64,000 nucleotides of DNA. Source: Myxococcota bacterium (lineage in GTDB: Bacteria > Myxococcota_A > SURF-8 > G963677705). Made by a program: the position numbers and the translations under genes. Positions 35,542 to 38,070 of this stretch are shown piece after piece. Positions within the stretch are counted from its first letter, which is position 1, and each line of letters starts with the position of its first letter. The stretch covers positions 276,285 to 340,284 of the forward strand of contig OY782497.1 of assembly GCA_963677705.1 (NCBI GenBank), given 5' to 3'. The notes under the pieces were generated by a model. That model was not told the DNA's origin and did not search any database. It saw nothing but the letters and a program-made list of their open reading frames with translations.

Positions 35542-36846
35542 TCATTCGTCCATATCATCTTCGCTGACATCACCGGTCAGACCGTCGGTAACACCATAGG
35601 TACACTGGCAGGGGTCGTCGGTGTTGCTCATATCACAACCGGCGCTTATATAAAATTCTCCGATGGTTTCCCAGCAGTATTCGTTGCAGTAAAGGTAGTT
35701 GTAGGACGTTCCGTCTTCTGAGCAGGTGGCTAAGCTGAGGCCATCATCGGTGCAGAACATCGCGTCACCCGGCGTGCATTCAAACATTTCGCCGTCTATC
35801 ATGCTGTACTGGCATTGGCAGGCATTCAGTTCGCTTTCCGTGTCGCAGCCTGTTGAATAGTAGTCGGCCCCGAAGTTATCCCGGCAGAATTCCTGGCAAT
35901 CGGTGGCTTCCCAGTAGTAATTGTCGCAGGTCATCAGGTTGCCTTCATCATTGCAGGAAAGCTCGCCGGGTTCGCATTCCACCATTTCACCGTCTACCAT
36001 GCCATATTCGCATTGGCAGGGATTGCCGCTGTTATCGACATCGCAACCGTAGCTGACATAGTCCGTGCCGTACTGTTCACTGCAAAGGGTTTCACAGCTT
36101 TGGTAGTCGTAGTAGCCTTCGTCGGCACAAACACCCAAAGTCCCGGTGTCATTGCAGATCATGTCTCCGGGCATACACTCGGTAATGCCGCCGTCAATGG
36201 CATCATACTCACATTGGCAGGGGTTGTCCGGGTTGTTTTCCACGCAGCCGTAACTGACGTAGTCCATGCCGAACTCTTCGTTGCAGTACGTCTCGCAGTT
36301 CACGTAATCGTAGTAATAGTCCTCGGTGCAGAGCGCCAGGGTTTGTTCATCGGAGCAATAGAAATAGCCTGGATCGCATTCCTGCATGACGCCGTCCGTT
36401 GCACCGTATTCACACTGGCAGAGGTTTTCCGGATTTTCCTCATTGCAGGAGTCAAAGGGGATGTAGTCCACTCCGAAGAGGTCTTCGCAGTACTCGGTGC
36501 ATTCCATGTCCTGCCATCGGCCATCCTCGTTACAGAGTTTGACCGTGTCCTCATCCCCGCAGGCAAAGGCTCCTTCCTCTTCGCAGGAGGTGTTGGTGGT
36601 ATCGTCGTCGTCATCCTGTTGCTGTTGGTCATCGTTGAAGTTGATGTCTTCATCGTTGCAGGCTGCGACGCCGAAGGCCAGCCCGGCGGCAAGAAGCAAT
36701 GTCGCCGCTTTTTTCACCAGCCCTTGGGGAAAAAGCCAGCTCAGCCAGCAGGCGTGGGCTACCGTGCATTCCCCGCTTTCCGAGGCATAGCTCGGTTCCT
36801 TATAGCGTTTCAGAGGCGTAACGCGAAATCCTTTGCTTGGGTTCAT
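35542..36846 (-). CDS. Cys/Asp/Glu-rich tandem-repeat lipoprotein (about five 66-aa repeats)
   Basis: Repeats each begin CQCEY and contain EC-x-PG and C-E-x-x-C spacing. The lipoprotein signal KKAATLLLAAGLAFGVAAC lies 43 aa inside the maximal ORF. A GTG at 36715-36717 with an AAGGG RBS is the more likely start. Confidence 0.65.
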   Translation of the reverse strand: MNPSKGFRVTPLKRYKEPSYASESGECTVAHACWLSWLFPQGLVKKAATLLLAAGLAFGVAACNDEDINFNDDQQQQDDDDDTTNTSCEEEGAFACGDEDTVKLCNEDGRWQDMECTEYCEDLFGVDYIPFDSCNEENPENLCQCEYGATDGVMQECDPGYFYCSDEQTLALCTEDYYYDYVNCETYCNEEFGMDYVSYGCVENNPDNPCQCEYDAIDGGITECMPGDMICNDTGTLGVCADEGYYDYQSCETLCSEQYGTDYVSYGCDVDNSGNPCQCEYGMVDGEMVECEPGELSCNDEGNLMTCDNYYWEATDCQEFCRDNFGADYYSTGCDTESELNACQCQYSMIDGEMFECTPGDAMFCTDDGLSLATCSEDGTSYNYLYCNEYCWETIGEFYISAGCDMSNTDDPCQCTYGVTDGLTGDVSEDDMDE

Positions 36847-36945
36847 GGCGGCTCTCCTTGTCGTCTGGGGCCTTGGTCCTTGGGGTTAATTGTACGTGAA
36901 ACGGTTTTGTTTTCCCAGTTTTTCTTCGTTTTTCACGGTTCGTAC

Positions 36946-38070
36946 TCAATCGAAATCATGCACGAAGTCGGTTTCCTTGAGGTGCTTGTAGTGTTTGCGG
37001 ATGAACATCGGGTTCTTCTCTTTGAACAGGATGTTCCCGATTTCATCGGCAATGGGAATCAGCATCTGTTCGTGAGCGCAGAGAATGGGAGACACGCCGG
37101 TAACGCTTCCTGTGGTCTGCCAGTTCAGACAGCCGCAATAGTTGGAGCAGCGACCGAGTAGGGCGCAGCCTTTGCAGTCGGTGCGTTCCTGCTTGTTTGC
37201 CGCAATCAATTCCTGCCACCGTGGCGTCAGTCCGCTGGAAACATGTCCGATGCGGAAATCCGTGGTGTCCTCGCGGTCGGAGACGAACTGCACGCAGGGA
37301 TAGATGGTGCCGTCCTGGGCAATACTGATCTTTTTTGCGCCAAAATCGCACAGCACGCCGAGTTTGATTGGAGTACGGATGTGGGTGCGTAGTTTGTCGT
37401 CAAAGAGGTTCATATAAAAGGCATCTCCCGCCCGCATCCGTTCGATGTACCACAGCGCCAGTTGCTCATAACTCTTGGAAAGCTGCTCCATCACCTTCGG
37501 GGTCCAGTCCGGGTGGGTGTAGTCCAGTTGGTGGACGATGTAGCGCAGGCCACGGCTCCAGATATAGTGGATGCTGTCGGCAAGGCGGTCTACGGTTTGC
37601 GGGGTGATGACGCTGGTGGCCACGGTGAGTGGATTGTAGCGCAGCATCATCTCCAGTTTCTCATCCACCAGCTTGAAGCTTCCCGTTCCCTGGGCGGTGA
37701 GGCGCTGGGCGTTGTGGGCCTGCTCGTTGCCGTCCAGGCTGATGGCGAAAAGTACCCGGTTTTCTTTGCAGACCTGCAACATCTCTTCGGTGAACAGAGT
37801 ACCGTTGGTACTCATGCGAAAGACGATGTGTTTTCCCACTTTCCGGCTCTGCTGCTTGGCATAGTCGATGATTTGCAGGATCAAAGGCCATTCCAGAAGT
37901 GGCTCGCCGCCGAAAAAGGAAACGCAGGCACTGTCTTTTCCCAATTCAAAGGCAAGGTCTACCGCCTGCCTGGCGGTGTCCAGGGACATCGTTTTCCCGG
38001 TCTTCTCCGGCGCGTAACAGTATTTACAACGTAGGTTACAGCCCGTAGTGAGATGAAGAATCACTTTCAT
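36946..38070 (-). CDS. radical SAM enzyme with a C-terminal SPASM domain (anSME-like peptide/protein-modifying maturase)
   Basis: N-terminal CNLRCKYC (CxxxCxxC) in an LHLTTGC context. The C-terminus has 7 Cys (CDFG...CVQF...CKGCALLGRCSNYCGC...C), typical of SPASM twin auxiliary clusters. Start at MKVILHL; the ORF is open to 38166. Confidence 0.85.
   Translation of the reverse strand: MKVILHLTTGCNLRCKYCYAPEKTGKTMSLDTARQAVDLAFELGKDSACVSFFGGEPLLEWPLILQIIDYAKQQSRKVGKHIVFRMSTNGTLFTEEMLQVCKENRVLFAISLDGNEQAHNAQRLTAQGTGSFKLVDEKLEMMLRYNPLTVATSVITPQTVDRLADSIHYIWSRGLRYIVHQLDYTHPDWTPKVMEQLSKSYEQLALWYIERMRAGDAFYMNLFDDKLRTHIRTPIKLGVLCDFGAKKISIAQDGTIYPCVQFVSDREDTTDFRIGHVSSGLTPRWQELIAANKQERTDCKGCALLGRCSNYCGCLNWQTTGSVTGVSPILCAHEQMLIPIADEIGNILFKEKNPMFIRKHYKHLKETDFVHDFD

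Follow-up and report, generated by a model that had tools for sequence, protein, structure and literature searches.

A radical SAM/SPASM enzyme and an exported, usually lipobox-bearing partner encoded beside it form a widespread and undescribed two-gene module, one copy of which lies in the 64,000-nucleotide stretch of Myxococcota DNA analysed here (the window). The enzyme and the repeat lipoprotein found in the window are a genuine conserved functional pair, and just one feature of the partner is retained in every cargo class, a 15-20-residue tail ahead of the signal peptide. Judging from the pattern of conservation, the cytoplasmic enzyme most likely binds this tail before Sec export. We tentatively favour a reading of the module in which the enzyme, which has no RRE domain, binds and modifies the N-terminal tail of the precursor prior to export and the Cys repeats are cargo. 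The initial annotation had proposed a protein-modifying system acting on Cys/Asp/Glu-rich repeats; a conserved enzyme-lipoprotein pair is indeed present, but these repeats are not the conserved feature of the client.

Both genes were correctly placed by the initial annotation, on the minus strand with the enzyme (CNLRCKYC core plus 7-Cys SPASM tail) upstream (Table 1). The enzyme open reading frame as listed spans 36946-38166; because homologs are 373-378 aa long and open with MK..LHLT, we assign the start to M33, the ATG at 38070. The 434-aa start of the partner is correct since its N-terminal 60 residues are conserved among homologs. Pfam Radical_SAM (PF04055) matches the enzyme at 74 bits (cut-off 29.5) and places it in the superfamily. 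The Pfam SPASM model stays at 17.3 bits, under its cut-off of 21.5, and the SPASM assignment therefore relies on how the region aligns to CteB and anSME and on its motif: the cysteines C241-x12-G-x4-C259, C299-x2-C-x5-C-x3-C312 and C331 reproduce the SPASM pattern CX9-15GX4C...CX2CX5CX3C...C. C314 is an eighth cysteine in this region, and all eight are invariant in 39 homologs. Other neighbours in the window are rluB, scpB, scpA, a Cys-rich lipoprotein and a vWA protein.

Table 1. Coordinates in the window of the enzyme, its partner and the convergent lipoprotein
Feature	Positions	Strand	Remarks
Radical SAM/SPASM enzyme	36946..38070	-	374 aa; without N-terminal RRE domain; Pfam Radical_SAM match
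CX3CX2C motif (CNLRCKYC), radical SAM [4Fe-4S] cluster binding	38017..38040	-	From translation; C11, C15 and C18 invariant in 39 homologs
SPASM region, enzyme residues 241-331	37078..37350	-	7-Cys motif plus extra Cys314 (CX2CX5CX3CXC)
Enzyme-partner intergenic gap, 99 nt	36847..36945	-	Enzyme stop codon to partner start codon; no conserved small ORF inside
Partner gene, 434-aa pre-lipoprotein	35542..36846	-	Tail, amphipathic helix, TM/signal helix, lipobox, acidic linker, five 8-Cys modules
N-terminal tail motif FRVTPLKRYKEPSYA, aa 7-21	36784..36828	-	Consensus [FL]x[VI]xP[VLI]xxYxx[AP]xYP
Amphipathic helix (aa 25-38), signal/TM helix (aa 41-63), lipobox GVAAC ending at Cys63	36658..36774	-	Predicted structure and motif
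Five tandem ~66-aa 8-Cys modules, aa 87-417	35596..36588	-	Each ending CQC[EQT]Y; pLDDT >90; predicted compact, disulfide-rich
Convergent lipoprotein	32987-35299	+	770 aa; ordinary lipoprotein signal peptide; 97 Cys

The partner had been described as a lipoprotein of 390-430 aa made of five repeats that each start with CQCEY. Five modules are present, but the protein has 434 residues and CQCEY occurs in only three of the CxCxY copies, the other two reading CQCQY and CQCTY (aa 143, 210, 277, 343 and 413; spacing 67, 67, 66 and 70). The last copy opens a mere 22-aa C-terminal stub, and the five 8-Cys modules, counting the one ahead of the first CQCEY, contribute 40 cysteines past the lipobox Cys63. 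The mature protein consists of 10.8% C, 14% D, 11.6% E and 0.8% K+R; EC-x-PG recurs in it and CxPxR (C/S-x-P/A-x-R) is absent, both as first noted. At the motif level it is a lipoprotein precursor, with an h-region followed by [LVI][ASTVI][GAS]C, and we infer an N-in orientation from the KK that precedes the helix and the acidic residues that follow. This succession of helix and lipobox is common to the Myxococcota-type homologs, and the Cys is missing in some distant partners. A Foldseek search of the PDB with a model of the CQCEY protein gave no match at E<=1e-3, the only similarities being local and pacifastin-like over ~30 residues. Likewise, Pfam and NCBIfam searches with the window partner, the 770-aa protein and seven partners of other classes returned nothing above a curated cut-off, the matches listed for partners being at chance level (E>=0.009).

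Several properties of the modules indicate what the repeats are. The eight cysteines of each module are invariant among homologs, the number of cysteines after the lipobox is even in 52 of 54 family members, and the predicted folds are compact with pLDDT >90; the modules thus fit disulfide-bonded extracytoplasmic domains with four disulfides each. C-x-C-E had been put forward as a recurring target motif, a suggestion that finds no support: the residue after C-x-C is acidic in just 54% of 208 repeat copies, and partners of enzymes 39-51% identical to that of the window have no such repeats. The Cys repeats are most likely disulfide-bonded, lineage-specific cargo and not the conserved target.

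The pairing itself is well conserved. Every orthologous locus (at least 58% enzyme identity) with enough downstream sequence carries a gene of the same kind directly downstream, and this order recurs in independent genomes, so the pairing is not due to chance. For instance, a tail-bearing CQCEY protein is encoded 12-45 nt downstream on the same strand next to the enzymes of L001 (62%), L003 (58%) and L089-L091, L093 and L095 (60-65%), which bears out the expected synteny with CQCEY-repeat proteins; across related loci the spacing goes from 25 nt of overlap to a gap of about 110 nt. Many of the 58 partner homologs are on contigs identical in length to those with enzyme hits, suggesting that they share contigs. 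The enzyme family and tail-tagged partners occur in Myxococcota, Bacillota, Planctomycetota, Bacteroidota, Atribacteria and candidate division GN15. A scan of contigs with the single enzyme sequence as query found nothing, and one with the full-length enzyme alignment, in which generic radical SAM motifs dominated, yielded only relatives at most 41% identical, which served as negative controls. No published account of the enzyme-lipoprotein pairing was found in the literature, in line with the first reading of the locus.

The convergent 770-aa lipoprotein does not belong to the module. It had been described as having modules that begin with CxCEC; it is convergent and a lipoprotein, but it contains just two exact CxCEC motifs (aa 345 and 537), alongside looser variants. 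By tblastn, both this protein and the vWA protein were found only in the near-identical genome L004, with no counterpart of the lipoprotein in any other locus, and both were rejected as module members.

Could the lipoprotein be a mere accessory (immunity, export, scaffold) or a co-transcribed neighbour, the true substrate being, for example, a small molecule or an unannotated short peptide? Short peptides overlooked by gene callers are the substrates of many SPASM enzymes, and RiPP clusters often include lipoproteins as accessory genes. However, no plausible conserved short precursor ORF was found in the 99-nt or 270-nt intergenic regions, nor in the related loci inspected. Tail-only short ORFs were sought as well, and the short hits of 78-120 aa in a representative search resemble truncated or frameshifted fragments. 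No conserved third gene, protease or transporter was found among the neighbourhoods inspected, and strict same-strand adjacency together with a family-specific N-terminal tail is hard to explain for an accessory protein. We therefore consider a different substrate very unlikely.

The partners differ profoundly in their mature parts. Across loci, the cargo may consist of CQCEY repeats, of acidic Cys-free repeats, of an FEHG domain or short versions of it (L087, L088, L153 and others), or of a 543-aa protein with no Cys whatsoever (L006). In the acidic-repeat partners (L085 and L102-L106, with enzymes 48-51% identical), the lipobox Cys is the only Cys after the signal peptide; P0318, compared at the level of the partner, has the same architecture. 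One enzyme paired with acidic repeats shares its genome with a CQCEY-paired enzyme. Enzymes 39-47% identical are paired with a wholly different domain of ~200 aa (FEHG...FGC...FLSEEEA), nuclease-like with a weak PD-(D/E)xK-like fold, which occurs in Bacillota, Planctomycetota and Bacteroidota. Cys98 and Glu109 are invariant in this class, and the FGC Cys is missing from some paralogs (L158a, L134) and from the short class. An alternation of Cys-type and Thr-type partners at the FGC position, suggested by L006, L161 and L167 and by analogy with Cys- and Ser-type sulfatases, found no support in a profile alignment. Myxococcota partners always have acidic residues immediately after the lipobox Cys.

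While the mature partner varies, the tail remains constant. Of about 90 loci with enzymes at least 39% identical, 77 had sufficient flanks to look for it, and a tail-bearing partner was found at 72 (56 have an ORF matching a tail HMM, and inspection or a cargo profile added 16 more). In 30,391 six-frame ORF segments, this HMM had 57 hits at E<=0.01, including the window partner (E=9e-5); all 57 are on the enzyme strand and nearly all adjoin the enzyme in the per-locus tally, with a few second copies located 0.5-2.4 kb away. The HMM was seeded from enzyme neighbours and still found many non-seed partners, including all those encoded upstream of the enzyme, and had no hit at E<=1 in 78 control loci containing radical SAM proteins at most 36% identical (L007-L084). 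In the window, the tail precedes the signal helix of a protein encoded on the same strand beside a family enzyme. It contains F7, P11, Y15 and Y20, the proline of the terminal YP being replaced by Ala (YA), as it is by Gly or Ala in the closest relatives. In the Myxococcota set (47 homologs), F7, Y15 and Y20 never vary and P11 hardly does, and in the FEHG set Y9, P12, Y14 and P15 are at least 90% conserved; tail residues are thus conserved as strongly as the core residues of the cargo. No conserved Cys is present in the tail. The five remaining loci lack a tail-bearing neighbour, and two of them (L094, L101) have an ATP-grasp gene beside the enzyme instead. The same ATP-grasp neighbour was seen in L086, which has too little downstream flank. 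A Tat signal was considered for the tail and rejected on two grounds: its basic pair lacks conservation, and 5-30 residues separate the motif from the hydrophobic region.

What chemistry might the enzyme perform? The search of family models recommended in the initial annotation places it nearest to thioether-forming SPASM maturases (PapB, QhpD, CcpM, SCIFF/CteB) and not to anSME, yet below the cut-off of every curated NCBIfam family among the best 25 of 83 listed for the window enzyme. The best match is PapB (NF047865; 220 bits vs a cut-off of 340, with 198-232 bits for other members of the enzyme family), followed by QhpD (TIGR03906; 159 vs 453), CcpM (153), the SCIFF maturase (TIGR03974; 144 vs 425) and the CXXX-repeat family (144). 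The closest solved structure is CteB (5wgg; 213 bits with the family profile). No PapB-type short precursor with a repeated C-x3-D/E core adjoins the enzyme, whose neighbour is the pre-lipoprotein; no six-Cys SCIFF peptide ORF is found beside it; and no qhpA, qhpB, qhpE or qhpF-type genes are nearby. The RRE with which PapB binds its leader peptide (residues 1-86, PMC12715619) has no equivalent in the enzyme, which starts 10 residues before CX3CX2C and aligns to CteB only from CteB residue 100 onwards, past the region used there for leader-peptide binding (RRE, residues 1-99).

These affinities speak for another reading, namely that the tail is only a leader that recruits the enzyme, which would set ranthipeptide/QhpD-type thioethers between Cys sulfur and an Asp/Glu carbon in the mature part before Sec export; signal peptidase II would then remove the leader along with the signal peptide. 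The targets would be the CQCEY modules or a lipobox-proximal C-x(1-4)-[DE] in the window and the FGC...SEEEA segment in Bacillota-type partners. PapB is described in PMC9413430, PMC12373016 and PMC12715619 as cross-linking Cys to Asp/Glu with very relaxed substrate requirements. The combination of a conserved tail and differing cargo in several partner paralogs recalls the leader/core logic of RiPPs, and cargo thioethers would be chemically possible in most classes, be it at Cys98 and Glu109 of the FEHG domain or at the acidic residues after the lipobox Cys in Myxococcota. But the acidic-repeat partners offer no Cys beyond that of the lipobox and L006 none at all, the FGC Cys is absent from the paralogs and short versions named above, and the inconsistent presence of an acidic residue after C-x-C and the even, disulfide-compatible cysteine numbers speak against such targets. 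In CteB, the substrate Cys binds to an open site of auxiliary cluster I; by alignment, the invariant C314 replaces an Ala of CteB and might fill this site. On balance, we regard thioethers in the cargo as an unlikely general function of the family, although they are still conceivable in the clade of the window.

The extra cysteine also bears on an anSME-like reaction, in which a partner Cys or Ser would be converted to formylglycine or another carbonyl before export, the target being the Cys after the hydrophobic helix or the FGC Cys. According to the alignment, C314 could make all auxiliary-cluster positions fully Cys-ligated. The enzyme aligns to anSME (4k37) over residues 7-312, and, as with anSME, it lacks an RRE, has about 370 residues and is encoded next to a large Sec-exported protein. 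This possibility is nonetheless highly improbable because: (i), the match to the anSME model TIGR03942 reaches 100 bits, the cut-off being 349; (ii), the partner has no C/S-x-P/A-x-R motif, and no sulfatase adjoins any enzyme at least 39% identical, whereas a conventional anSME had been expected to reveal itself by consistent sulfatase neighbours (the single one observed, in L008, accompanies an enzyme 33% identical, outside the family); (iii), none of the Cys or Ser positions is conserved over all partner classes; and (iv), oxidation of the lipobox Cys would block lipidation.

We return to the tail, which the enzyme probably modifies. The oxygen-sensitive enzyme would act in the cytoplasm, docking on the tail of a precursor that is not yet exported or is membrane-inserted. 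The alternating hydrophobic F-x-V-x-P-V stretch may serve as a leader-like strand, and the 5'-deoxyadenosyl radical would be used to modify the adjacent, nearly invariant Y-x4-Y-P segment. Since the tail has no conserved Cys, the chemistry that we favour would be a cross-link or C-H functionalisation involving a Tyr. The general Sec/Lgt/Lsp machinery would then export the cargo, in the window a string of five disulfide-rich CQCEY modules, and cleave off tail and signal peptide at the lipobox. Two points count against the tail as target: the nearest curated relatives of the enzyme all form Cys thioethers, for which the tail provides no conserved Cys, and a costly modification would be oddly placed in a segment that is discarded with the signal peptide. 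The tail could also be a pure recognition element, a leader, with the chemistry taking place on the cargo.

It is tempting to speculate that the enzyme and the tail make up a system spanning phyla in which the signal-peptide region is itself the substrate, the cytoplasmic pre-signal tail receiving for example a Tyr-centred cross-link in Y-x4-Y-P. We consider this possible, if doubtful. If true, modification of the tail could gate or time Sec/lipoprotein export, or cleavage by signal peptidase II could release a modified product derived from the signal peptide. Radical SAM/SPASM maturases have been associated chiefly with short leader-core peptides recognised through an RRE, protein clients being few (sulfatases, QhpC). 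The family would add RRE-independent substrate recognition and a large, cross-phylum set of protein clients without any Pfam or NCBIfam model, and a tag ahead of the signal peptide would leave export and tag removal to Sec/Lgt/Lsp with no dedicated protease or transporter. The analysis also corrects the obvious guess for the locus, the eye-catching Cys/Asp/Glu repeats being most likely cargo, and the tail, at 15-20 residues, is short enough to be synthesised as a test substrate, which puts the chemistry within direct experimental reach.

The module has partial counterparts among known systems. The 'rSAM/lipoprotein system' of TIGRFAMs (TIGR04133/TIGR04134) also combines a radical SAM/SPASM gene with a putative lipoprotein; no such model is among the NCBIfam matches listed for five family enzymes at E<=1e-20, nor among the best 25 of 83 families listed for the window enzyme. 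The KxYKxGKxW and YSIRK-type motifs of Gram-positive surface proteins are conserved short motifs in an extended signal-peptide n-region and are not known to be linked to a modifying enzyme. The PapB (freyrasin) and CteB maturases share the radical SAM core, the full SPASM domain and a substrate encoded adjacently, but here the enzyme has no N-terminal RRE and carries an extra invariant Cys314, the partner is an exported protein of 150-550 aa rather than a short leader-core peptide, and the conserved partner element has no Cys. QhpC carries an N-terminal leader that is removed later. In the QhpD-QhpC pair, as proposed here, a SPASM enzyme modifies a periplasm-bound protein subunit before export; the present partners are unrelated to QhpC, and removal of the leader would use general signal peptidase II at the lipobox instead of a dedicated protease. 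Finally, the module differs from anSME-sulfatase pairs in having neither sulfatase nor CxPxR and in a motif that precedes the signal peptide rather than lying in the mature enzyme, but it shares with them an RRE-less SPASM enzyme of ~370 aa, for which we propose a similar mode of action: in the cytoplasm, on a large Sec-exported protein, recognised through a short linear motif and not through an RRE-bound leader.

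The module consists of two genes: a radical SAM/SPASM enzyme and an adjoining partner that has only an N-terminal tail in common with all other partners. In the window, the enzyme gene lies directly upstream of a Cys-rich repeat lipoprotein on the same strand, as first described (see table). Since the homologs (373-378 aa) begin at the M33 position of the window ORF, the true start is at 38070, as also chosen in the initial annotation, and places CNLRCKYC ten residues from the N-terminus. The public call for the enzyme in a near-identical genome (P0001, 347 aa) starts at an internal Met, omits CX3CX2C and looks like a start-codon miscall. 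The CNLRCKYC core and seven-Cys SPASM tail reported earlier are both present (C241-x12-G-x4-C259, C299-x2-C-x5-C-x3-C312 and C331), with C314 as an additional eighth; all eight cysteines are invariant in 39 homologs.

Features of the module, its neighbours and related loci
Feature	Sequence	Position	Strand	Remark
Radical SAM ORF	window	36946-38166	-	upstream of the 434-aa ORF
Partner ORF, 434 aa	window	35542-36846	-	99 nt downstream of the radical SAM ORF
Lipoprotein, 770 aa	window	32987-35299	+	convergent
RluB-type pseudouridine synthase	window	38436-39569	-	adjoins ScpB; long basic Ser/Lys/Arg-rich C-terminal tail
ScpB	window	39587-41731	-	unusually long, 714 aa; large, highly acidic low-complexity extensions on either side of the ScpB domain
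Small SRP RNA, bacterial	window	50148-50244	+	RF00169, 58 bits; sole Rfam family of the window over gathering score
Enzyme, public call P0001	L004	8001-9044
Two or three tandem partners beside one enzyme gene	L158/L162	849-4126
Same	L107	2553-4390
Same	L121	3159-4386
Tandem tail-bearing partners beside one enzyme	L105	667-1824
Same	L001	9145-11744
ATP-grasp gene upstream of enzyme	L086	5021-6004
Same	L094	475-1485
Same	L101	3398-4405
Protein of ~130 aa after distant SPASM enzyme	L016	9189-9587
Same	L021	9146-9577
Same	L022	7497-7901
Same	L024	9179-9565

The enzyme scored well over the threshold of the Pfam Radical_SAM model and slightly under that of SPASM. The NCBIfam comparison suggested in the initial annotation ranked the PapB ranthipeptide maturase first (220 bits, cut-off 340), followed by other Cys-thioether maturases (nif11-type 161, QhpD 159, CcpM 153, CXXX-repeat and SCIFF 144 each) and, at just 100 bits against a cut-off of 349, anSME; no curated NCBIfam cut-off was reached. 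PapB was likewise the top model for the enzymes of all partner classes (198-232 bits). Among solved structures, the family profile matched CteB best (213 bits) and anSME second (114 bits). The CteB alignment starts at CteB residue 100 and the enzyme therefore has no N-terminal RRE, the leader-peptide-binding domain that occupies residues 1-86 of PapB (PMC12715619). The family also differs from CteB in reading CX2CX5CX3C-G-C instead of CX2CX5CX3C-A-A, the extra Cys being invariant.

The pairing of enzyme and partner is conserved. A protein search retrieved 875 relatives of the enzyme at E<=1e-20; among the best 70 (at least 44% identity), the named ones come from metagenome-assembled genomes of Myxococcota or "Deltaproteobacteria", one being labelled Pseudomonadota, and bear no other annotation than "radical SAM protein". 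Beside enzymes 62% and 58% identical, on two long contigs of other genomes, the next gene downstream on the same strand encodes a CQCEY-type module protein of 467-510 aa, with a second copy of 329 aa at one locus. The window repeat protein has 58 homologs, all "hypothetical" and devoid of Pfam domains, many on contigs exactly as long as those with enzyme matches. The initial annotation had considered that relatives might consistently neighbour sulfatases or lack Cys-repeat neighbours, and neither turned out to be so: CQCEY-type proteins directly follow the 62% and 58% enzymes, and the sole sulfatase seen lies beside a gene at most 36% identical (control locus L008), as expected beside a true anSME.

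All full-length repeat proteins carry M..xF.V.PV..Y.GARYPS before the hydrophobic signal helix, and at distant enzyme loci the same tail precedes quite different proteins: (i) downstream of a second enzyme (51%, L085) in a CQCEY-pair genome comes an acidic protein of 200 aa that has the tail and a lipobox and no further Cys; (ii) the enzymes of L102-L106, 48% identical, precede acidic proteins of a like kind, in which the lipobox Cys is the only one; (iii) after enzymes 42-44% identical come proteins of 145-190 aa that combine the tail with a "...DGYNDSLRVGYEY" domain; and (iv) the protein after a Saprospiraceae enzyme (39%) has 543 aa, the tail and not a single Cys. Searching 1.84 billion representative sequences with a profile of the tail and signal region of the Myxococcota type yielded 50 clusters (at 50% identity). 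One of them, P0318, is a database protein that combines a window-type tail with a Cys-free cargo of DGDYY repeats; the short matches appear truncated. The tail is the sole universal feature of the partners, and no partner class reached a Pfam or NCBIfam cut-off.

The commonest partner class, and the usual one for the 41-47% enzymes, is a lipoprotein of ~270 aa which opens with M.[LV]KP[VI]..Y..P.YP.K....NP.LLK.LP.RW, continues with a transmembrane helix and lipobox, and then reads ...APIFEHGxGxGSFGCVSVAPPxFLSEEEA.... Its 129 homologs, from Bacillota, Atribacteria and others, Candidatus Formimonas warabiya among them, are named "hypothetical" or, twice, "metalloprotease". P31, W34, C98 and E109 are among the invariant positions, and Y9, P12, Y14 and P15 among the nearly invariant ones. 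The short "...DGYNDSLRVGYEY" partners are homologous to this domain; they and some paralogs lack the FGC Cys. Among these paralogs is one of the three tandem partners at L158; the Cys is otherwise conserved.

To count the association, a tail HMM was built from 69 aligned tails (one iteration) and run on 30,391 six-frame ORF segments from the window and 168 fetched loci. All 57 matches at E<=0.01 share the enzyme's strand and nearly all adjoin it, with a few second copies 0.5-2.4 kb off. At many of the loci whose enzyme is 43-52% identical, the tail-bearing gene is immediately upstream rather than downstream, and the seed set contained none of these upstream-encoded partners. Requiring 300 nt or more of flank on each side left 77 loci, 56 of which had a tail-bearing neighbour. 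Of the 21 apparent negatives, 16 were then recovered by inspection and with a cargo-domain profile (15 on the enzyme's strand, one opposite), giving 72/77. The 78 control loci (L007-L084, radical SAM proteins at most 36% identical) gave no tail match at E<=1. Two of the five exceptions (L094 and L101) have a D-Ala-D-Ala-ligase-like ATP-grasp gene beside the enzyme, as does L086, whose short downstream flank places it outside the testable set. No tail-bearing neighbour was detectable in this subgroup (46-52%), an indication that its client differs or that its pathway is coupled to an ATP-grasp enzyme.

The five ~66-aa modules of the window partner stand, although not every one opens with CQCEY: CxCxY occurs at residues 143, 210, 277, 343 and 413, in three copies as CQCEY and in one each as CQCQY and CQCTY. 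With eight Cys each, the modules hold 40 Cys after the lipobox Cys63, in a mature protein that is extremely acidic (D+E 26%, K+R 0.8%). AlphaFold2 models each module at pLDDT >90 as a small sheet and helix, for which Foldseek gave no solved fold at E<=1e-3; it predicts coil for the tail (residues 1-24) and helices at 25-38 and 41-63. The module cysteines are all invariant (47 homologs), 52 of 54 family members have an even number of Cys after the lipobox, and the residue after C-x-C is acidic in only 54% of 208 copies. Given these properties and the extracytoplasmic location, four structural disulfides per module would fit better than recurring Cys-to-Glu thioethers. The partner's 90%-identity cluster also holds nine fragments of 47-57 aa (P0300-P0308) that stem from ENA and Logan assemblies and are presumably pieces of similar modules on short metagenome contigs.

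Since the tail precedes the hydrophobic helix and lies on its positively charged flank, it should stay in the cytoplasm, where the Fe-S clusters of the enzyme must likewise work. We propose that the enzyme would bind the tail, in which the alternating hydrophobic F-x-V-x-P-V resembles a recognition element that forms a strand, and may modify the adjacent Y-x4-Y-P segment, before the Sec/Lgt/Lsp pathway would export the protein and remove tail and signal peptide. That the tail is the target is a tentative preference, held at a little under an even chance, because its residues match those of the catalytic core in conservation and because enzymes 40-65% identical serve cargos without common features, some of them Cys-free. 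The same cargos speak against a role of the tail as mere leader for thioether formation in the cargo before export, which we consider less likely than the tail as target. The case for it is nonetheless serious: all close curated relatives are synthases of Cys thioethers, and in most cargos a Cys near acidic residues is on offer.

Beyond the two genes, the inspected neighbourhoods contain no recurring protease, transporter or RRE/PqqD-like gene. The convergent 770-aa lipoprotein noted earlier is there, although exact CxCEC motifs number only two. It has an ordinary MIRRATLLAVSLCILLLFGC signal peptide without the tail, no Pfam or NCBIfam match, and 97 Cys in a protein with four C-x-C-E-x-G-x-CC-DGC-x-[FY]-x-P-x-G-x-x-C modules, loosely recalling disintegrin-like patterns. 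Among the fetched loci, it and a vWA protein have homologs solely in L004 (a 99.9%-identical genome), and both were rejected as module members on this ground; the lipoprotein probably stands on its own as a secreted Cys-rich protein. Elsewhere, the ~130-aa proteins that follow distant SPASM enzymes (29-32%) have the motif "...GGIRTPHxHVGxE(I/V)xLxxRxQF" in common, and appear to represent a further uncharacterised radical SAM-partner pairing.

In its mode of action the enzyme would resemble a SPASM maturase whose client is genetically linked to it. Score cut-offs, RRE and client type place it in none of the PapB, SCIFF, QhpD or anSME families. A recognition tag ahead of a lipoprotein signal peptide appears to be undescribed: curated models for it are absent, and full-text searches of openly accessible literature found no account of one. 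Among known systems, ranthipeptide maturases are closest to the enzyme in sequence, anSME-sulfatase is closest to the module in client size and absence of an RRE, and QhpD-QhpC is closest in logic, the leader being removed on export.
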